Shown here: positions 10,017 to 45,975 of the stretch, piece by piece | Position numbering within the stretch: position 1 is the first letter of the stretch | Layout: every line of letters starts with the position of its first letter | Assembly (NCBI GenBank): GCA_964596685.1 | Contig: CAZQVA010000007.1 | Coordinates: 11,026-75,025 of the forward strand | Length of the DNA: 64,000 bases | Source of the DNA: an uncultured bacterium | GTDB lineage: Bacteria; Chlamydiota; Chlamydiia; Chlamydiales; VFKH01 | Direction: 5' to 3' | Notes under the pieces: generated by a model | The model's database searches: none | What the model saw: the letters and a program-made list of their open reading frames with translations, nothing else | What the model was told of the DNA's origin: nothing | Made by a program: the position numbers and the translations under genes

Positions 10017-11081
10017 ATGGGTGAAAAAACCGAACAGGCGACCCCGAAGAAGCTGCGCGATGCGCGGCGCAAGGGACAAGTCGCCAAATCAGAAGACTTT
10101 CCTTCAGCCATTACCTTTATTGCAGGAATTGGTCTAACACTTGGTACAGCAGATTATATCTATACCAAGATGGGCTCATACTTTGTTGCTGTCTTTCGTA
10201 TGAGTGCATCAACAGACATTCAAACCAAAATCGGTGGGCTCATGTCCAACGCTTTGACTGTCATCATCGCTGCCTCTTTACCAATTGCAGGCATCGTTGC
10301 GGCACTGGGCATCCTAACACGCTTTCTTATCACAGGCCCTGTTTTCTCCACAGAAGTGTTCAAACCAAACTTCAAGAAATTTAATCCCGTCGAAAACATT
10401 AAACAAAAATTTAAATTTCAAACTGTTTTTGAACTTCTTAAGTCGACGCTCAAGCTACTAATCGCAGGGATATTAATTTATTATACGATGAAAGAAGGCG
10501 TCAAAGAGATCATTCAGGTTGCTTCACTGCCGCTTATGGGCTCTGTTTTGCTCTTTAAAGAGCTTCTTATTCGCGTTGTCATTCGCGTAGGAATTTTTTT
10601 CATCATTGTGGCACTTTTTGACTTGATCTACCAAAAATTGAACTTTGCAAAACAGATGAAAATGGAAAAGTTCGAAATTAAGCAGGAATATAAAGATACA
10701 GAAGGAAACCCTGAGATCAAAAGTAAACGCCGCTCGATTGCACAAGAAATTGCCTACCAAGATCCTACTTCAGCGGTTAGACGTTCAAAAGCACTCATCA
10801 CTAACCCCACACACATTGCTATTGCCATTGGCTATGAACCAGAGCAGTATTCTGCCCCTTTTATTCTCGCCAAAGGGATGAACACATTGGCTGAAAGAAT
10901 GATTCAAGAAGCACTTACTTTTAATATTCCGATCATGCGCGATGTCCCCCTAGCAAGAAAACTCTTTGAAACTGGGCAGGTGATGCAATATATCCCAGAA
11001 GACACTTATGAAGCTGTTGCAGAGATCTTGCGCACAATCTTGGCGGAAGCCCCTGGAGAATTTAATCCCGAAACAAGTTGA
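10017..11081 (+). CDS. sctU: type III secretion export-switch protein SctU (CdsU/YscU/FlhB family)
   Basis: N-terminus MGEKTEQATPKKLRDARRKGQVAKS, four TM segments, and the autocleavage motif NPTH (LITNPTHIAIAI). Confidence 0.95.
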   Translation: MGEKTEQATPKKLRDARRKGQVAKSEDFPSAITFIAGIGLTLGTADYIYTKMGSYFVAVFRMSASTDIQTKIGGLMSNALTVIIAASLPIAGIVAALGILTRFLITGPVFSTEVFKPNFKKFNPVENIKQKFKFQTVFELLKSTLKLLIAGILIYYTMKEGVKEIIQVASLPLMGSVLLFKELLIRVVIRVGIFFIIVALFDLIYQKLNFAKQMKMEKFEIKQEYKDTEGNPEIKSKRRSIAQEIAYQDPTSAVRRSKALITNPTHIAIAIGYEPEQYSAPFILAKGMNTLAERMIQEALTFNIPIMRDVPLARKLFETGQVMQYIPEDTYEAVAEILRTILAEAPGEFNPETS

Positions 11082-11084
11082 ACT

Positions 11085-11247
11085 TATACCCATTTCACCT
11101 GAAGAATTGGTTTTAGACCGAGAGAAAGCCCCGGGCTCGAGCCATCAAAAAAGTCCCCATATTAGTAATATGAGGACTTTTTTGATGGCTCGATCGCGGG
11201 AGCTTTTTCTTCGGCCTAAAACCAATTCTTCAGGTGAAATGGGTATA
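11085..11247. mobile_element. Family-A palindromic element, copy A1 (between sctU and sctV)
   Basis: 163 bp with termini TATACCCATTTCACCTGAAGAATTGG ... CCAATTCTTCAGGTGAAATGGGTATA and nearly full-length arm pairing. GTTGAAC lies on both sides (11077-11083 and 11249-11255), offset by 1 nt from each end. Confidence 0.85.
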
Positions 11248-11338: not shown

Positions 11339-13465
11339 ATGAGCGGAATTTTCAATAAAATTGGCACCTCTCTAGGCAATGAAAAGGCGCTCACAGCTAT
11401 TTCAAAATCAAGTGATTTGATACTAGCCGGCTGGATTGTGGCGATCATCACTATGATGATTATTCCTATTCCACCTGCCATCATCGACCTTGTTATTGCT
11501 TTTAACCTGACTGTGGCTATCGGCCTTCTGATGGTGGCTATTTACATCCCCAGTGCTTTGCAACTGTCGATGTTCCCATCACTATTATTGATCACTACAC
11601 TGTTTCGCCTTGGCGTCAACATCTCTTCAACGCGCCAAATTCTATTGCACGCCTATGCAGGGCATATCATTCAGACCTTTGGTAATTTCGTCGTGGGTGG
11701 TAACTTCGTCATCGGTGGTATCATCTTCGTCATTATCGTCGTTGTACAATTCATCGTTGTGACTAAAGGTGCTGAGCGCGTTGCTGAAGTAGCTGCTCGC
11801 TTCCGCTTGGACGCGATGCCAGGTAAGCAGATGAGTATCGACGCAGATATGCGTGCAGGAGTGCTCGACGCAACACAAGCGCGTGAAAAGCGCGCGCTCA
11901 TCCAGCGCGAAAGCGAAATGTATGGTGCGATGGATGGAGCGATGAAGTTCGTCAAAGGGGACGCGATTGCTGGAATGATCATTACCGTCGTCAACGTTAT
12001 TGGCGGGCTGATCATCGGAACTGCTATGCATGGAATGTCCACGATACAAGCAGCACGCGTATATTCTCTTTTGTCAATTGGTGACGGACTCGTTTCTATT
12101 ATCCCCTCTCTGCTCATCTCCGTTACAGCAGGTATCGTCACCACTCGCGTTTCAAGTGACCGCTCAGATAGCAACCTGGGTCGTGAAATCTCTACTCAGA
12201 TTTTTAAACAACCACGTGCGATTCTTATCGCTGCAGGCGTACTCGTTTTAATTGGAATCATCCCGGGATTTCCTACCACCGTGTTTTTCCTGTTAGCTAC
12301 GGTTTTGGGACTGGTGGGCTATAATTTGACGGTCAACCAAAAGCGCAAAGCTGCAAAATCGGGTGGACCAGAAGGCGGCATTGTAGCTACCGATGTAGAA
12401 GGTCATAGTGTGGTGACTCCAGGAAAAGAAGATTTTGCGCTCACACTTCCGGTCATCTTGGAGACAGGTAAAGGGATTTCAAAACTTGTTAATGAAAAAT
12501 CAGGACAAGTCTTTATTGATGAAATGATCCCGCGCATGCGTTTGGCCCTGTACCAAGATATGGGCGTCCGCTATCCCGGCGTACACGTACGCACAGATGC
12601 TCCTCACTTGGAAGCTGATGAATATCTCATCCTTTTGAATGAAGTACCGATTATTCGTGGTAAAATTTTTCTCGGATATATTTTGTGCAATGAATCTCAA
12701 GAGAACTTATTGCGCTATAATATCCCTGCAAAGACCTACCGAAATAATTTAGGTCTTCCAAATGTCTGGGTAGAAGAGCGCTATACCGAGATTGTAAAAA
12801 AAGCGGGCATCAAAATGTGGTCCCCTTTAGAGGTGCTCATCCTTCACCTCTCCTACTTCTTTAAGCACTATTCCAATGAATTTGTTGGGATCCAGGAAGT
12901 GCGCGCCATGTTGGAATTTATGGAAAAATCTTTTCCTGATCTCGTTAAAGAAGTCACACGCCTCGTTCCTCTTCAAAAACTTACGGAGATTTTTAAGCGT
13001 CTTGTACAAGAAGAGGTCTCCATCAAAGATTTGCGCACTATTTTAGAATCACTCAGTGAATGGGCACAAACAGAAAAAGATACCGTTCTTCTCACTGAGT
13101 ACATTCGCTCTTCACTAAAGCGTTATATCAGTTTCAAACACTCACAAGGTCAATCCACACTTTCTGTTTACCTACTCGATCCTGAAATCGAAGATATGGT
13201 CCGCGGAGCAATTAAGCAGACATCAGCTGGCTCTTACCTCGCCCTTGACCCTGATTCTGTGCAGTTAATTCTCCAAGCAATGCGCACAACGATTTCTCCA
13301 ACAACAGCAAGAGGACAACCTCCCGTACTCCTGACAGCAATTGACGTGCGTCGTTTTGTTCGTAAACTTGTTGAAATGGAATTCCCCAATGTCGCGGTTG
13401 TCTCCTACCAAGAGATTATCCCTGAAATTCGCATTCAACCGCTGGGGCGTATTCAAATAAGCTAA
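11339..13465 (+). CDS. sctV: type III secretion export gate SctV (CdsV/LcrD/FlhA family)
   Basis: 708 aa. N-terminal multi-TM domain with the FHIPEP motif RFRLDAMPGKQMSIDAD, and a large cytoplasmic C-terminal domain. Confidence 0.95.
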   Translation: MSGIFNKIGTSLGNEKALTAISKSSDLILAGWIVAIITMMIIPIPPAIIDLVIAFNLTVAIGLLMVAIYIPSALQLSMFPSLLLITTLFRLGVNISSTRQILLHAYAGHIIQTFGNFVVGGNFVIGGIIFVIIVVVQFIVVTKGAERVAEVAARFRLDAMPGKQMSIDADMRAGVLDATQAREKRALIQRESEMYGAMDGAMKFVKGDAIAGMIITVVNVIGGLIIGTAMHGMSTIQAARVYSLLSIGDGLVSIIPSLLISVTAGIVTTRVSSDRSDSNLGREISTQIFKQPRAILIAAGVLVLIGIIPGFPTTVFFLLATVLGLVGYNLTVNQKRKAAKSGGPEGGIVATDVEGHSVVTPGKEDFALTLPVILETGKGISKLVNEKSGQVFIDEMIPRMRLALYQDMGVRYPGVHVRTDAPHLEADEYLILLNEVPIIRGKIFLGYILCNESQENLLRYNIPAKTYRNNLGLPNVWVEERYTEIVKKAGIKMWSPLEVLILHLSYFFKHYSNEFVGIQEVRAMLEFMEKSFPDLVKEVTRLVPLQKLTEIFKRLVQEEVSIKDLRTILESLSEWAQTEKDTVLLTEYIRSSLKRYISFKHSQGQSTLSVYLLDPEIEDMVRGAIKQTSAGSYLALDPDSVQLILQAMRTTISPTTARGQPPVLLTAIDVRRFVRKLVEMEFPNVAVVSYQEIIPEIRIQPLGRIQIS

Positions 13466-16686: not shown

Positions 16687-16850
16687 TATACCCATTTCAC
16701 CTGAAGAATTGGATTTTAGACCGAGAGAAAGCCCCGGGCTCGAGCCAGCAAAAAAGTTCCCATATTGGTAATATGAGGACTTTTTTGCTGGCTCGATCGC
16801 GGGAGCTTTTTCTTCGGCCTAAAACCAATTCTTCAGGTGAAATGGGTATA
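16687..16850. mobile_element. Family-A palindromic element, copy A2
   Basis: 164 bp, nearly identical to A1 and in the same orientation. Begins 6 nt after the malQ stop. Confidence 0.85.
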
Positions 16851-26435: not shown

Positions 26436-26601
26436 TATACCCATTCCATCTGAAGAATTGGATTTTAGGCCGAAGAAAAAGCTCTCGCGATCGAGGCAGA
26501 AAAAAAAGGCCTCATATTACTAATATGGGGGCTTTTTTTCTGCCTCGAGCTCGGAGGATTTTCTCGGCCTAAAATCCAATTCTCTAGGTGGAATGGGTAT
26601 A
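26436..26601. mobile_element. Family-A palindromic element, copy A3 (opposite arm order to A1/A2)
   Basis: 166 bp with termini TATACCCATTCCATCTGAAGAATTGG ... CCAATTCTCTAGGTGGAATGGGTATA. Ends 18 nt downstream of the minus-strand ahpC stop. Confidence 0.85.
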
Positions 26602-28878: not shown

Positions 28879-29475
28879 ATGAAGACTTTTTTACTTTGCC
28901 TCCTTGCTCCATTATTCTGTTTATCTGCACTACAAGCAGAAGAGCCCTCTTTGCGGTTGAGGGAACTGCCCGAATTTATTAAAGACCAACATACCAATGA
29001 ATGGTTAGCCCCTCCTCTCGGCAAAAACCTCTCCCCTGCCCTTGCATGGACCCATCCTCCTCTCAACACAAAAAGCTTTACGCTGATCATGGAAAGTTCC
29101 GATGGCACAACATGCTACTGGGCCCTCGCTCGCCTTCCTTGTGGCATTAATGAATTGAAAGAGGGTATTTCAAAAAGTAATTTTTTGATCAACGGAGGGA
29201 TGCAAGGTGCTAATAGCACAGGGTCTATCGGATATCAAGGTCCAAAAGCCGCTGAAGATAAGGTACAGCACATTAATCTGACGCTTTATGCATTAGATAT
29301 CTTCCCCACTTTACACATTGGTTTTTCATGTAAAGAAATCAAAGAAATTATGGAAGGACATATCTTAGCTAGTGCAACACTTGAATTTATTGTAGATGGC
29401 TCTGGACGTATGAATCTTGAACCACTCCCCTTTCAGGAGGTTTATGATGAAGTTTCTTCAACTGAACATTTATAA
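28879..29475 (+). CDS. secreted PEBP/YbhB-family protein (divergent)
   Basis: Signal peptide, then NLSPALAWTHPPLNTKSFTLIM and GYQGP...HINLTLYALD, resembling YbhB/YbcL. The usual DPDAP and GPCPP motifs are altered. Confidence 0.5.
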   Translation: MKTFLLCLLAPLFCLSALQAEEPSLRLRELPEFIKDQHTNEWLAPPLGKNLSPALAWTHPPLNTKSFTLIMESSDGTTCYWALARLPCGINELKEGISKSNFLINGGMQGANSTGSIGYQGPKAAEDKVQHINLTLYALDIFPTLHIGFSCKEIKEIMEGHILASATLEFIVDGSGRMNLEPLPFQEVYDEVSSTEHL

Positions 29476-30363
29476 GGGCCGCTGCCTCAAAGAGCTGATT
29501 GCCTACATCAATAAAGAACAATTTGATTTACTTCACTTGCAAGAAGTGACAAGCGGTGTGTTAAGCTTTGCAGATGACACTTTCGAGACATTAAAGCGCG
29601 CCACTGGGCTTCATGGGACTTTGGTCATGGATTCAAAAGTCGATCAACAAGCAAATAGTTATACCCATCCCACCTGAAGAATTGGATTTTAGGCCGAAGA
29701 AAAAGCTTCCGCGATCGCGCCAGAAAAAAAGTCTCCATATTACTAATATGAGGACTTTTTTTCTGACTCGAGCCCGGGGCTTTCTCTTTAGTCTAAAATC
29801 CAATTCTTCAGGTGGGATGGGTATACATAGGAAATGCCACTTTATACCGCCCCCAATGGGTCTACTTAGACCATCATTTCATGCGTTTTCAGCCAGCAGA
29901 AATCATTTCCTATCCGGACACCAAAGATCCTAGTTTACACACTAGATCTGCCATTTTCATTAAATTTAAAACACCCAAAGAGGTATTTTGGAGCATTAAC
30001 ACCCATCTTGCCTGGGGGCCCACTCCACTTGATGAACCTTATAAAGTTAAAGAAGCTACCCTTCTTTCTGAAAAAATCATCACTTTAGACGCCCCTTTTA
30101 TCCTTTCTGGTGATTTCAATGTCACCAGAGAAACACAAACGGCTCATTTACTTGAGCAACATGGCTTTAGCCTAACGCGGCAGCACCAAATACCCAACAC
30201 TCTCAACCCAACTATTCACCGCAGCAAGCATCTTTTTCCAAAGGGTCTAGCTGTCGACTACTTAATTGTTCATCCTTCATTACACTGCGGAGGGTTTACC
30301 TGTGTCACCGAGCCTTCTCTCTCCGACCATTTCGCACTACGCGCCAATTTTAACGATTTATAA
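29444..30363 (+). pseudogene. endonuclease/exonuclease/phosphatase (EEP) family gene interrupted by repeat A4
   Basis: The N-terminal part (MMKFLQLNIY...LLHLQEV, strong AGGAGG RBS) stops at a TGA inside the repeat. The C-terminal part (INTHLAW, ILSGDFNV, SLSDHFAL) resumes in another frame right after the repeat. Removing 164 or 167 nt joins them in frame. Confidence 0.8.
29660..29825. mobile_element. Family-A palindromic element, copy A4, inserted in the EEP gene
   Basis: 166 bp with termini TATACCCATCCCACCTGAAGAATTGG ... CCAATTCTTCAGGTGGGATGGGTATA. ATAG lies next to both ends (29655-29658 and 29827-29830). Confidence 0.85.
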
Positions 30364-30916: not shown

Positions 30917-31040
30917 AATTACCTCCTTAATCGATTGTGGTGGAATTTTATCCCAGATTGAGCCGTTTTAAGTTCTATAGTCTCTTAAGCCATGCTTAAA
31001 ATGTGATCTGTGAAAGATAGTCATGGTGCACACACCAAAG

Positions 31041-37582: not shown

Positions 37583-37749
37583 GACGTGAGCCTTTTGCAA
37601 AACTATCCGTAATATGAACTGGTTGCCTAGCAGCGATCTAAGGAGAAAACCTCCTTACGCATGGCTATGGTCATTCATGCGTCGCTTTTTTTTGAATCCT
37701 GCAGCCCTCACTCAGGTCCTATTATGGATAGTTTTTCAAAAGGCTCACG
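37583..37749. repeat. 25-nt inverted repeat pair enclosing ~117 nt (unclassified)
   Basis: CGTGAGCCTTTTGCAAAACTATCC (37583-37606) matches GGATAGTTTTTCAAAAGGCTCACG (37725-37749) apart from a one-nt bulge. Lies in the secDF upstream region. Confidence 0.5.
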
Positions 37750-37757
37750 TGAGTTCT

Positions 37758-37838
37758 ATATATGAGAGCTTTTTTTATGACTCGAGCTCAGGGCTTTCTC
37801 TTCTGTCTACAACCAATTCTTCAAGTGGAATGGGTATA
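37758..37838. repeat. Family-A half element (A5), broken at the palindrome centre
   Basis: ATATGAGAGC...CTCGAGCTCAGGGCTTTCTCTTCTGTCTACAACCAATTCTTCAAGTGGAATGGGTATA. Only one arm is present, and its terminus faces the RND operon. Confidence 0.8.
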
Positions 37839-42181: not shown

Positions 42182-43565
42182 CTACAAGCCCTCCTCTTGC
42201 ATAAGCCAAGTTAGCCAACGAAATAAAATATGTTGTTTCTGCCTGAATTAATGCACTGCGCGCATCACTTAACGTTGCTTGTGCTTGCAACAGATCGACA
42301 ATATCGTTAATACCAGACCTATACCCAACCAATATTGCATCATATGCTTCTTCTGCATATTCTAAATATTCTCTACTATACTCAACACTTGCAACCGATC
42401 CACGCACAGTATAGTAATTTGTCAACAGCGTTAAGAAAACTGCATTCTCTTGCACTTGTAGTGCAGCAACTGCTTCTTCCCAATCGGCAATTGCTTGTAA
42501 ATAACTGTTTAAGTCATTGAAGCCGTTAAAAATCGGTAAATTCATCACTAATTCAAAGTTAAAATCCGCTCCATCACTTCCCAAATGTTTAAAGTAGGTC
42601 GTTCCATACTGCCCATTAAAGTTTAAAGTGGGGTAAAAGGCGGAGTTTGCTTGTGCAATGAGAGCAGCTTGCGATTGGATGCGTGCGCGCAAGGCTTGTA
42701 GATCGGCGCGACAATATTTTGCCTCCTGTACTAAACGACAGGTATCAGCTTGCACCTCATGGATATTAGATAGATCTGGATAAACGACATCAAACTGTGT
42801 GTCGGGGCGCACACCTACAGCACTTGCTAATGTGGCTTGGGCTGTTTCAAGAGAGACCTCTTGGTTAACGAGATTCAATTTCGCATTATAATACTGCGCT
42901 TTAGCCTGTAATACATCCACAATTGTATCAATACCAGCACTAAACTGAGCTTCAGAGGCTGCAAGCGTCATTTCTGCATTCTCTAAATCAGCTTGGCGCG
43001 CCACCAATAATTCCTCAGCGGCGATGAGTTGATAATAAGCTTGAATCACATTGATCATCACTGTCTGGATTTGCCAGCTATAATTCCAATTTGCTGCCAC
43101 TAAAGCTGCTTTTGCTGATTCAATTCCCGCATCACGACCACCAAAATCAAGCAATAAATAATTTACATACAGCGAAGCCGCATAGGTAGTATATCCATAA
43201 ATTGACCCCAACAGCGTCAATTGAGCTGGATGCGCACGCGTTACCGTGAGAGTTCCATCGACTGTCGGATAAAGGCTGCTTTCAGCAATCCCTAAAGCGG
43301 CTACTGCTTGCTTGGCTTGAGCCCATATCTCTTTACTTGTAGGTTGATTACAAAGACCAATATCCACAAGTTGTGCTAGCGCAATACGCTGCCCGTCATA
43401 AATGTAAGGAGGGGGTTGACAAAGAGGAGCAGGAGGAGTGGCGCGTTCCTTATGGCAAGGCGACAGAGGCAAAAGGGCTGGCATGCGGGGCTTCCAACAC
43501 CCTGTCAGCGTTGCCGCTAAAAGGGTACAAATGCATGTTAGTTCAAGCCACCGCCGATTCTTCAC
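42174..43565 (-). CDS. RND efflux outer membrane factor lipoprotein (NodT/OprM-like)
   Basis: 463 aa with lipobox TLTGC and two OEP repeats. 8-nt overlap with the MFP gene. Confidence 0.85.
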   Translation of the reverse strand: MKNRRWLELTCICTLLAATLTGCWKPRMPALLPLSPCHKERATPPAPLCQPPPYIYDGQRIALAQLVDIGLCNQPTSKEIWAQAKQAVAALGIAESSLYPTVDGTLTVTRAHPAQLTLLGSIYGYTTYAASLYVNYLLLDFGGRDAGIESAKAALVAANWNYSWQIQTVMINVIQAYYQLIAAEELLVARQADLENAEMTLAASEAQFSAGIDTIVDVLQAKAQYYNAKLNLVNQEVSLETAQATLASAVGVRPDTQFDVVYPDLSNIHEVQADTCRLVQEAKYCRADLQALRARIQSQAALIAQANSAFYPTLNFNGQYGTTYFKHLGSDGADFNFELVMNLPIFNGFNDLNSYLQAIADWEEAVAALQVQENAVFLTLLTNYYTVRGSVASVEYSREYLEYAEEAYDAILVGYRSGINDIVDLLQAQATLSDARSALIQAETTYFISLANLAYARGGLVDA

Positions 43566-44961
43566 TCCGCTTCCTCACCGTCATCCACACGTTGTATACG
43601 AAAAGACAATTTCCAAAAAGAATTATTACACCACTAATCGCGCGCGCGACCCAAAATGGAAACATTTTTGCTAATGTGTCTAAGAATGAGAGAGCACCAA
43701 ACTGCGCCTGCATGACAGGATATGAGTCGCCTTGTCCCCAGGAGTTCCACATTAATCCCTGCCAGTATCCTCCCAGCATCAATGAGAAAAACATTAAAAG
43801 AGCTCCCCAAAAATTGCAGTGAAAGTGCCACTTACTGAGGGATTCTGAATGCATAGGGCGTTTATACATGATCATCAAAGCCCCATAAATGCCACCAAAA
43901 GCAAAAAACGAGAAACTTCCAAAGAGAGCCAGATGCGCGTGGCCAATTATCCAGTCTGTTTTGGAGGTAATCGCATTCACTGAACGCAGCGATTGAAGTG
44001 GCCCTTGAATGCATGTAACAAGGTAGAATAGAGTGCCGGCAGCAAAAAACCGCAATGGTATACTCTTTAACCCTTCCTTCCAACGCACTTTTAAGGTGCC
44101 AAAGAAGTTTGTTACTACTGTCCAAACGGGGATAAAAAGCCAAATTGAAAAAATAATACTTGTTGTTTGTAACCACTGTGAAATAGGACCATGAATCATA
44201 TGATGAGCTCCTACCCAGGCGTATACAAATGCCACCGACCAAAACCCAATCATAGAAAGTCGATGGCTATAAAGTGGAGTATCCGAAATTTTAGGGATAA
44301 AATAGTAGGCGATTGCCAGCCCCATGGGAGTAAAAATTAGACCCACAAGATTGTGCACATAAAAAAAGTTCACATTCACGCGTGCCACGCCACCAGGCAC
44401 CCAATCCATGACTAAATTTCCTGCAATAAAAGTAATAGCTGTCCAAAAGAGCGTTCCTAAACCATACCAAAGAGCAACATAAATCTTTTTGTAGTGTCTG
44501 CGTACAACCGTCATGGTTAAATTAAGTGAAAAGAGTACCCAGATAAACGCAATCAACCCCTTAATGGGTAACCAGCCAAAAAGCCACATGGGCAATTCCG
44601 CGTATTCCCACCCCCAATTATATCCAAATGGCAGTGAGAAGACGCCTAAACATAAGACAATCCACCACAAAATATTGGTTACATAGGCGAGTTTTATGCT
44701 CCATAGAGGCACTCCAGCCAAACGCGGTACGATAAAATAGAAAAGGCCCATATTAGCTGATAAAAGCCATAACCAAGCGATTGCATTGACATGTACAGGC
44801 CTTAAACGGCCAAATTGCAATAAAGGTTCATTGATCACATTAGGAAAAAGAAATGTACTTATTGCGAGAAATAGCCCTATACCCATCCCTAAGATAAGAA
44901 AGAAAATAGAAGGAAAGAGCATCTGGCGAGAAGGGCGATCATCGAAAGTTGTCATATTCAT
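43543..44961 (-). CDS. ccoN: cbb3-type heme-copper oxidase subunit I (CcoN-like), no ccoO/ccoP adjacent
   Basis: ~472 aa with 12 or more TM segments. All canonical ligand regions are present: LRPVHVN (helix II His), FFYVHNLVGLIFT (CuB His), FVYAWVGAHHMIHGP (Tyr at -6 plus HH), DWIIGHAHLALFG (HxH). I chose the start MNMTTF. The ORF-track N-terminus runs through repeat A6 and rnpB. Confidence 0.8.
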   Translation of the reverse strand: MNMTTFDDRPSRQMLFPSIFFLILGMGIGLFLAISTFLFPNVINEPLLQFGRLRPVHVNAIAWLWLLSANMGLFYFIVPRLAGVPLWSIKLAYVTNILWWIVLCLGVFSLPFGYNWGWEYAELPMWLFGWLPIKGLIAFIWVLFSLNLTMTVVRRHYKKIYVALWYGLGTLFWTAITFIAGNLVMDWVPGGVARVNVNFFYVHNLVGLIFTPMGLAIAYYFIPKISDTPLYSHRLSMIGFWSVAFVYAWVGAHHMIHGPISQWLQTTSIIFSIWLFIPVWTVVTNFFGTLKVRWKEGLKSIPLRFFAAGTLFYLVTCIQGPLQSLRSVNAITSKTDWIIGHAHLALFGSFSFFAFGGIYGALMIMYKRPMHSESLSKWHFHCNFWGALLMFFSLMLGGYWQGLMWNSWGQGDSYPVMQAQFGALSFLDTLAKMFPFWVARAISGVIILFGNCLFVYNVWMTVRKRSEESAVA

Positions 44962-45030
44962 CAAATGTTTGATACAATAAGAGAAAGCTACACTGCTTTG
45001 ATTTAAGGTGTCTAGCAATTTTCTGGACTT

Positions 45031-45080
45031 TATACCCATTCCACTTGAAGAATTGGTTTTAGACAGAAGAGAAGGCCCTT
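45031..45080. repeat. Family-A half element (A6), terminus facing the ccoN-RND block
   Basis: TATACCCATTCCACTTGAAGAATTGGTTTTAGACAGAAGAGAAGGCCC. 47 of its first 49 nt are identical to the reverse complement of A5. Confidence 0.8.
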
Positions 45081-45097
45081 CAAATCTAAAATTTCGT

Positions 45098-45478
45098 TGT
45101 GGGAAGAGATGCAATCGCTCGTTCAAAGTTTGACCGAGAGGAAAGTCTGGACTTTTTAGGGACAAGATACCAGTGAAAGACTGGGGACCATCAGAAGGTC
45201 ACGGAAAGTGCAACAGAAAATACCCCTCCCAGATTTAATGGGTAAGGATGAAAATGCTTCTTTAATAAAAGAGGCCTGATTTTAGGCAACTAAAACAGCT
45301 GTAAACCCTATCTAAAGCAAGATCGGATGTTGTTCATATGCTGTGGTCCGCGGCGAACAACATATTTTTAGTATCGCTTGAGGGCAGTGGTGACACTGCT
45401 CCTTAGACAAATGATTGCACGCATTGTCTCTTTTATTAGCGACAATGCCGACAGAATCCGGCTTATTATCTTCCCACA
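45098..45478 (+). ncRNA. rnpB: RNase P RNA, bacterial type A
   Basis: Conserved blocks GAGAGGAAAGTCTGGAC, AGTGCAACAGAAAATACC, GGGTAAGGATGAAA and CGACAGAATCCGGCTTA. The P1 helix pairs TGTGGGAAGA (45098-) with TCTTCCCACA (-45478). Confidence 0.9.
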
Positions 45479-45975
45479 TTTTTTTTGTTGTAATCGGACT
45501 CACGTTTTTCAAGCAGAAGTAGAGCTTGCTTCCTCTCTACTCCCCCAGCATATCCGTGCAAACGCCCATCTGAACCAATCACCCTATGACAAGGAATAAT
45601 GATAGACAAGGGATTGCATCCAACAGCATTGGCGACGGCTCGCACCGCATCCACTCTACCTATCTGCTGCGCAATCTCTTTATACGTAGTAACTGTTCCA
45701 TAAGGGATCTTTTGCAATGCTTTCCAAGTATCCTGTTGCAAAGGAGTGCCACCTAATAAATGGTAGGGCATGTCAAAGCGCGTGCGGCATTTATGAAAGT
45801 ATTCATTCAATGCTTGATGTAGCTCTAAAAATAAGGGATGCTCGTGATCATGAATCCATGTGGGTTGAATCGCAGGCAGAGCCTTCTGTGGCACAAAGTA
45901 AAGTCCACAAAGAGCGCCGTCCTGCGCTACCACCCGCATCTGTCCAAGAGGCGTATCAATATGCGTATATTCCAT
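45466..45975 (-). CDS. ogt: methylated-DNA--protein-cysteine methyltransferase
   Basis: 169 aa with active site IIIPCHRVIGSDG and a helix-turn-helix region TYKEIAQQIG. Its 3' end overlaps the rnpB 3' end by 13 nt (convergent). Confidence 0.9.
   Translation of the reverse strand: MEYTHIDTPLGQMRVVAQDGALCGLYFVPQKALPAIQPTWIHDHEHPLFLELHQALNEYFHKCRTRFDMPYHLLGGTPLQQDTWKALQKIPYGTVTTYKEIAQQIGRVDAVRAVANAVGCNPLSIIIPCHRVIGSDGRLHGYAGGVERKQALLLLEKRESDYNKKNVGR

Follow-up and report, generated by a model that had tools for sequence, protein, structure and literature searches.

Duplication of a TA target is the hallmark of IS630/Tc1-mariner transposition, and the MITEs of this group, such as the Stowaway-like elements and Nezha of cyanobacteria, combine that duplication with short terminal inverted repeats and a length of 100-300 bp. 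The Correia elements of Neisseria also duplicate a TA target. The Rickettsia palindromic elements (RPE), palindromes of 100-150 bp in an obligate intracellular host, lie inside protein genes, where they are in frame and translated. Correia elements (CREE/nemis) are ~100-200 bp long, non-coding and dispersed, with inverted repeats that begin TATA..; they are mostly intergenic and near gene ends, at times disrupt coding sequences, and form long RNA hairpins (PMC10969869). The same 2024 review of prokaryotic MITEs describes SPRITE, a terminator-like MITE of Streptococcus pneumoniae; it mentions chlamydiae 0 times, and its 'spider endosymbiont' example is Cardinium (PMC10969869).

Here we describe a gene of the EEP family (Pfam PF03372), from an uncultured bacterium related to the chlamydiae, that is broken by a near-perfect palindrome of 166 nt, at positions 29660-29825 of the window, the whole 64-kb stretch of DNA that was analysed. 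A preliminary description of the locus had proposed that a mobile repeat split a single EEP gene. Our results establish an insertion with exact boundaries and a TA duplication in what was once one gene, both halves of which are intact. The best explanation of the locus as a whole, with a probability of about 0.9, is that a MITE inserted at the TA in codon 73 and left the gene an insertional pseudogene.

Boundaries of the insertion and the repaired gene

The two parts of the gene stand in different frames. The N-terminal open reading frame continues from its last native codon through YTHPT and ends within the element, at TGA 29675-29677; the second, of 183 aa, opens at GTG 29812 in another frame and closes with the stop 30361-30363. 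The second ATG, at 29447, is better spaced from the AGGAGG than the first, and gene callers begin the N-terminal fragment there; its product, of 76 aa, is recorded as P0234. The preliminary description had given the same layout, with an N-terminal frame preceded by AGGAGG and ending at the TGA of the repeat, and the remainder in a different frame after it. Direct reading and the ORF list agree with this and with all of its coordinates, and its motifs LQLN, LQEV, THLAW, SGDFN and SDH are intact, every one on invariant columns of the family alignment.

We tried symmetric excision models of 162, 163, 164, 165 and 166 nt by a frame test. The 164-nt deletion (29662-29825, the element and one TA) gave an open frame of 251 aa and was the sole symmetric model to do so; deletions of 166 nt (no duplication), 165, 163 and 162 nt (a 4-bp TATA duplication) all led to an early stop. 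Excision of 167 nt (29660-29826) is also in frame, with 250 aa, but it is asymmetric to the palindrome and drops a residue that is present in 18 of 18 homologues. Fusions by 164 and by 167 nt had both been put forward in the preliminary description, and both do restore the frame, but the longer is disfavoured, as the junction is gapless only with the repair that retains a TA. The excision models and the Tyr column of the homologues together yield the structure TA, 162-nt element, TA, with the target TA in the Tyr73 codon TAC (Table 1). The predicted empty site is ...CAAGCAAATAGT-TA-CATAGGAAATGCC..., and a synthetic empty-site sequence for this locus would be ...GTCGATCAACAAGCAAATAGTTACATAGGAAATGCCACTTTATACC.... 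The state of the gene before insertion would be that seen in its intact homologues, which are at most 50% identical and are the only form in which it is known.

Table 1. Features of the EEP locus and copies of the element in the 64-kb window
Feature	Positions	Strand	Basis and remarks
Full copy, intergenic, between sctU (Bac_export_2) and sctV (FHIPEP), type III secretion	11085..11247	-	blastn, profile search
Full copy, intergenic, 7 nt past the 4-alpha-glucanotransferase stop	16687..16850	-	blastn, profile search
Full copy, intergenic, between a DUF1207 gene and a peroxiredoxin gene	26436..26601	+	blastn, profile search
Shine-Dalgarno AGGAGG of the EEP gene	29435..29440	+	Direct reading; 3 nt before ATG 29444, 6 nt before ATG 29447
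EEP N-terminal part, codons 1-72	29444..29659	+	ORF list and homologue alignment; invariant N8, D28, Q33, E34
TA target-site duplication, left copy	29660..29661		Frame restoration by the 164-nt model and the homologues' Tyr
MITE, 162 nt	29662..29823		Inverted repeats, fold, family alignment, profile search
In-frame GTG in the right arm	29812..29814	+	Start of the 183-aa ORF P0001 in the public (NCBI) annotation; probably no real start
TA target-site duplication, right copy	29824..29825		With C29826 gives the Tyr73 codon TAC of the repaired gene
EEP C-terminal part, residues 74-251 from 29827	29826..30363	+	THLAW, SGDFN, NTLN and SDH motifs; stop 30361-30363
Half copy (right half), intergenic, between secDF and an acrB-like gene	37760..37838	+	blastn, profile search; the second strain has the same
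Terminal remnant, one arm, 20 nt upstream of the RNase P RNA gene	45031..45078	+	blastn, profile search

Only the repaired protein matches PF03372 (Exo_endo_phos) from end to end, residues 5-241 covering positions 1-225 of the 225 in the profile at 36 bits (cutoff 24.5). No NCBIfam equivalog was found for it, the score being 19 bits against a cutoff of 144. A homologue search of 5.8 billion proteins returned 111, including the 183-aa fragment (P0001). Each of the remaining 110 is a single protein of some 250 aa (~240-300 aa); their coverage of the query is 86-100%, mostly 97-100%, and the best are 49-50% identical. At 43 of 43 genome loci the EEP relative is one continuous match. Alignment with 18 homologues sets the junction ..QQANS-Y-IGNATLY.. 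against the consensus ..S-Y-F-G-N-A-T-F-Y.. without a gap, and the TA-derived codon specifies Tyr, as in 14 of the 18. All 30 of 30 invariant columns are kept, including N8, E34, D169, N171, D217 and S239-D240-H241, and the EEP catalytic and metal-binding set (N8, E34, D169, N171, D217, D240, H241) is complete.

AlphaFold2, run on the homologue alignment, predicts that the repaired 251-aa protein forms one compact domain (pLDDT 92.7, pTM 0.92), and the insertion breaks this model at residue 73, the start of strand beta4. The model has the four-layer alpha/beta-sandwich of the EEP fold. Foldseek matches it to BVU_0621 (3g6s), the mannosyl-6-phosphatase Bt3783 (4c1r) and TDP2 with probability 1.0 and TM 0.70-0.74, and sequence-profile matches to solved structures agree with the assignment. 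The full fold and the catalytic residues are shared with these proteins, while identity to the solved structures is 12-18% at most.

Repeats do cause mis-assemblies, and the element might have been placed in the gene by one; equally, the two ORFs might naturally have been separate genes from the start. No intact homologue comes closer than ~50% identity, and gene order differs: the contigs of the nearest three proteins (P0002, P0003 and P0004) have no neighbours in common with the window. The junctions are nevertheless found in independent assemblies. Logan contigs from SRR14271332, SRR14271335 and SRR14271336, which are 100% identical to the window, recover the left and right junctions, and a contig from ERR7015365, at 99.14%, has an identical right junction. 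The preliminary description had named orthologues encoded as two separate genes without a repeat as the observation that would tell against it, and none of the 110 proteins or 43 genome loci is split. The check that it had proposed, an alignment of intact homologues across the junction, was run with sequences of no more than 50% identity and gave the gapless result above. The predicted fold is a single domain that is indivisible between beta3 and beta4. We give an artefact or an original pair of genes practically no credence, and the view of the locus as one EEP gene that has been split holds.

Structure, family and class of the element

The arms of the EEP copy (29660-29706 and 29779-29825) are 47 nt long and 91% complementary, and enclose an inner pair of arms at 29709-29777. 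The terminal inverted repeats are perfect over the outer 31 nt, or 33 when the TA is counted, and the interior is palindromic about a centre made up of an A-run, a hairpin with a 12-13-bp stem and a T-run. A single hairpin is predicted for the complete 166 nt, with -105.6 kcal/mol (z = -15.3) for RNA and -60.7 kcal/mol (z = -15) for DNA. The element has no coding capacity: the ORFs that span it are all short, read through the palindrome and match no family.

Searches with blastn and a profile found four full and two partial copies in the 64-kb window, and matches to the 29-nt terminus numbered five, with 0 expected in shuffles. The full copies start TATACCCAT and end ATGGGTATA in unrelated flanks, the search motif for the family termini being TACCCATYYCAYYTGAAGAATTGG, and 4 of 4 are bounded by TA-TA...TA-TA. 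Identity of the other three to the EEP copy is 83-89%, a divergence that gives no obvious sign of a burst under way. The termini of the EEP copy are more nearly perfect than those of the other three, and it is the only full copy within a gene, the others being intergenic. Three copies sit a few nt past stop codons.

Small size, terminal inverted repeats, a 2-bp TA duplication, the lack of an ORF and dispersed copies make the element a MITE with TA target-site duplication. The dispersed family, the duplication and the single-gene homologues thus bear out the earlier proposal of insertion by a mobile repeat. The TA target with its 2-bp duplication is that of the IS630/Tc1-mariner group, and the element is also like the Stowaway-like and Nezha MITEs in length and in its short terminal inverted repeats. 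Unlike those, it was found with neither a cognate IS630-type transposase nor a full-length element bearing these ends; no transposase with matching ends was detected in the window, beside any copy or in three metagenome loci that carry the termini. It is therefore by the TA duplication, taken by itself, that the element is assigned to the IS630 type. Probably a TA-specific DDE transposase of the IS630/Tc1-mariner type, whose gene would lie elsewhere in the genome, moved it in trans.

The element is like the Correia elements in that both are small, non-coding, dispersed and mostly intergenic, with TATA.. termini and TA duplication. The present element differs in that it occurs in another phylum, is palindromic over nearly its whole length, has no detected sequence relationship to them, and shows no promoter-like hexamers. 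It resembles the RPE as a palindromic repeat inside a protein-coding gene, but the host frame does not stay open: 164 nt is not a multiple of 3 and an in-frame TGA stands at 29675, so the protein is truncated and the element is not of the RPE type. With SPRITE it shares a centre that resembles a bidirectional intrinsic terminator and the position of three copies just past stop codons. It differs from SPRITE in that a simple terminator scan by consensus called the central hairpin in only 1 of 4 full copies; a terminator role for the centre is putative and weakly supported.

The MITE family is previously undescribed. An exact scan of GTDB representative genomes with the element core gave no match, nor did plasmid and phage collections. 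A metagenome scan with the 26-nt terminus found the three loci mentioned above, which hold remnant termini only and one degenerate relative of 180 nt (L054, 86-265). No Rfam family reached threshold; the best matches below it were plant miRNA hairpins, such as MIR1435 (48 bits; gathering score 94). Plant miRNA hairpins of this kind are derived from MITEs of the IS630/Tc1-mariner group. The sub-threshold matches (these hairpins, rli53 and others) are driven by shape and do not reflect homology.

Consequences for the EEP gene

The course of events that we propose begins with a 162-nt non-autonomous transposon, which would have entered the TA of codon 73 (TAC, Tyr) in a 251-codon EEP gene and duplicated the TA. 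The 164 nt so added would shift the frame and bring a TGA into it five codons into the element, so that translation would end after 72 native residues. The remaining 178 codons are left without a credible start, which makes the gene an insertional pseudogene. In addition, the stable hairpin with its terminator-like centre may block transcription or translation into the 3' half. The 76-aa and 183-aa ORFs of the public record are better described as the halves of one pseudogene.

The preliminary description had suggested that a C-terminal protein might be made from GTG 29812. This codon, the one potential start of the 3' part, is indeed in frame and is the annotated start, but the 20 nt upstream (TCTAAAATCCAATTCTTCAG) contain no Shine-Dalgarno-like (purine-rich) sequence, the codon is base-paired inside the 47-bp stem, and no promoter-like site was found in or after the element. 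The fragment would lack strands beta1-beta3 together with the invariant N8 and E34. In EEP enzymes such as ExoIII, APE1 and DNase I, the residues that correspond to Asn8 and Glu34 bind the metal. To judge from the sequence, a useful product from this start is unlikely. The wider proposal, that the 183-aa ORF is expressed and retains some function, alone or complemented by the 76-aa peptide, draws on the presence of both P0001 and P0234 in the public annotation, and the hint of constraint on the C-terminal fragment discussed below applies to it equally. Set against the missing initiation signals and the missing strands and residues, we consider it very improbable.

Comparison of strains, age of the insertion and host lineage

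Both halves are free of further stops and frameshifts. Of 56 conserved positions (at least 85% agreement), 3 differ from the consensus in the repaired protein, against 0-10 in intact homologues. The intact halves and the most perfect termini of the family fit a young insertion.

The Logan contigs that are identical to the window end at 29688 and 29796, 29-30 nt inside each arm, because the inverted repeat of the element necessarily interrupts a graph built with k = 31. In no sample was an empty site seen, and no Logan contig branches at the TA; as the contigs run unbranched for 29-30 nt into the element, no empty-site allele is detectable in those samples. The ERR7015365 contig comes from a different strain, with 67 differences in 8 kb. 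Both available strains thus carry the insertion, and the identical right junction of the second means that the insertion predates the split of the strains or has spread between them. On the left side the ERR7015365 contig stops short of the junction, and look-ups of the N-terminal fragment, GlyRS and PEBP, with their cluster members, gave no variant proteins. The preliminary description had called the inactivation recent, and the undecayed gene, with its 3 deviations in 56, agrees with this, but, given the shared junction in a strain at 99.14% identity, the word applies only in this sense of a lack of decay.

Between the two strains, the C-terminal half of the EEP gene has 5 synonymous and 2 non-synonymous substitutions, and three neighbouring genes have 42 and 0. 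Under neutrality, 71.5% of substitutions would be non-synonymous, given the observed transition/transversion spectrum, and the probability of 2 or fewer in 7 is 0.023. At the synonymous rate of the neighbours 8.1 non-synonymous changes would be expected, and the probability of 2 or fewer is 0.013. The fragment is nevertheless less constrained than its neighbours (2/7 against 0/42 non-synonymous, Fisher 0.018), so it is relaxed but not clearly neutral. All 7 substitutions lie beyond 30050, and the 250 nt that adjoin the junction are identical between the strains. Recent recombination of the insertion allele between the strains could explain these 250 identical bases. Possible causes of the non-synonymous deficit are chance, the numbers being small, such a recombinational transfer, and a retained or reversible function.

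The last of these would mean that the gene is alive, the palindrome being lost at a frequency that keeps the coding sequence under selection and serving as a reversible off-switch. Removal could come about by precise excision, through slippage between the TA repeats or through a transposase, or during translation by ribosomal bypass, with take-off at TAT 29660 and landing at TAC 29824, at the hairpin's base. If true, this would account for both the deficit of non-synonymous changes in two strains that bear the insertion and the lack of decay at conserved residues, and for bypass the take-off and landing codons, both Tyr, do stand at the base of the stem. The deficit is drawn from just 7 substitutions, with constraint below that of the neighbours, and the Logan contigs show neither an empty-site allele nor branching at the TA. 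Bypass is further disfavoured, as the putative take-off codon is not immediately followed by a stop. In T4 gene 60, 50 nt are skipped, and we know of no ribosomal bypass of the length needed here. A switch of this kind seems to us unlikely, with a small chance of being correct, and we prefer to read the locus as an insertional pseudogene.

The window also contains type III secretion genes, a fused SecDF of 1513 aa and GlyRS, whose nearest relatives, in Simkania sp., Chlamydiales and Parachlamydiales MAGs, are 71% identical. To judge from these genes, the host branches deeply within the Chlamydiota and lacks a close relative among sequenced organisms. Inactivation of a gene by a MITE is well known, a textbook event, and so the value of the finding is mainly practical: with the exact ends and the TA target fixed, other copies and the partner transposase become searchable. 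It also documents small transposons that are active, or were so recently, in a chlamydial lineage that branches deeply. Some copies in the window lie beside type III secretion genes and the RNase P RNA gene, whose expression they may alter.

Symmetry and central hairpin of the MITE

Comparison of the four full copies of the 162-nt palindromic MITE showed that the arms do not drift independently. Between the copy that splits the EEP phosphoesterase gene and each of the other three, both arms change in concert within each copy, so that variants such as CATCCCACC, CATTTCACC and CATTCCAYC are found on both arms. At 5 of the 77 stem pairs both bases had changed with pairing preserved, a count drawn from four copies only. 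As both arms vary together, palindromic symmetry is maintained: either selection acts on the hairpin, or some process of copying or repair keeps the arms matched.

The middle of every copy (29722-29764 in the EEP gene) is a 12-13-bp stem with an A-run before it and a T-run after it, and looks like a bidirectional intrinsic terminator. Stop codons lie 4-7 nt upstream of, or close to, three of the copies. A consensus terminator scan detected the central hairpin in only one copy, at 26510-26530.

The best Rfam matches to 29659-29825 (minus strand) were two families of plant miRNA precursors, MIR1435 (48 bits against a gathering score of 94) and MIR7504 (36 bits against 83), both below threshold. 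MIR1435 precursors derive from Stowaway-type MITEs. We rejected kinship with plant miRNAs, as the likeness is one of long perfect hairpins, not of sequence.

Age and relatives of the MITE family

The 26-nt terminus of the MITE occurs as solo remnants in three metagenome contigs of other chlamydia-like organisms (L052-L054), and L054 carries a degenerate palindromic relative as well. These matches show that the family, or else its parent IS, is older than the species of the window. Within the species, the degenerate half copy between secDF and an acrB-like gene is kept in the second strain (L006 29-108), whose contig stops shortly past it. As it is present in both strains, this half copy predates their split.

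The two strains differ at 67 positions in 8 kb overall. The intergenic spacer between the FMN-reductase gene and recJ (30992-31031) has 8 differences in 40 nt, a density far above the rest.

Features in the window and in metagenome contigs L052-L054
Feature	Position	Remarks
Full MITE copy	11085-11247	between sctU (10017-11081) and sctV (11339-13465)
Full MITE copy	16687-16850	
Full MITE copy	26436-26601	
PEBP-family gene (PF01161)	28879-29475	upstream of EEP gene; overlaps its start (29444) by 32 nt
Full MITE copy	29660-29825	inside EEP gene
MITE half copy	37746-37838	degenerate
One-arm MITE remnant	45031-45078	ends 20 nt upstream of RNase P RNA gene
Bacterial RNase P RNA gene	45099-45481	206 bits
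26-nt terminus	L052 1743-1768	
26-nt terminus	L053 810-835	
Palindromic MITE relative, 180 nt	L054 86-265	contig also encodes cytochrome oxidase and heme O synthase

Neighbouring genes and the EEP subfamily

The type III secretion genes sctU and sctV are usually co-transcribed, and the 160-nt hairpin between them could influence sctV expression. A long COX1-family ORF, 43543-45165(-), reaches into the one-arm remnant and the RNase P RNA gene solely by a 5' extension that lacks support; the Pfam match of the ORF begins at residue 79.

The overlap of the PEBP-family and EEP genes suggests that, until the MITE inserted, the two shared a transcript or had coupled translation. The EEP subfamily is spread patchily at 35-50% identity (43 genome loci, L009-L051, and 110 single proteins, P0002-P0111), in chlamydiae, many Patescibacteria (Levyibacteriota, Doudnabacteria, Saccharimonadales) and MAGs labelled uncultured Gammaproteobacteria, a distribution that may reflect exchange between host-dependent bacteria.
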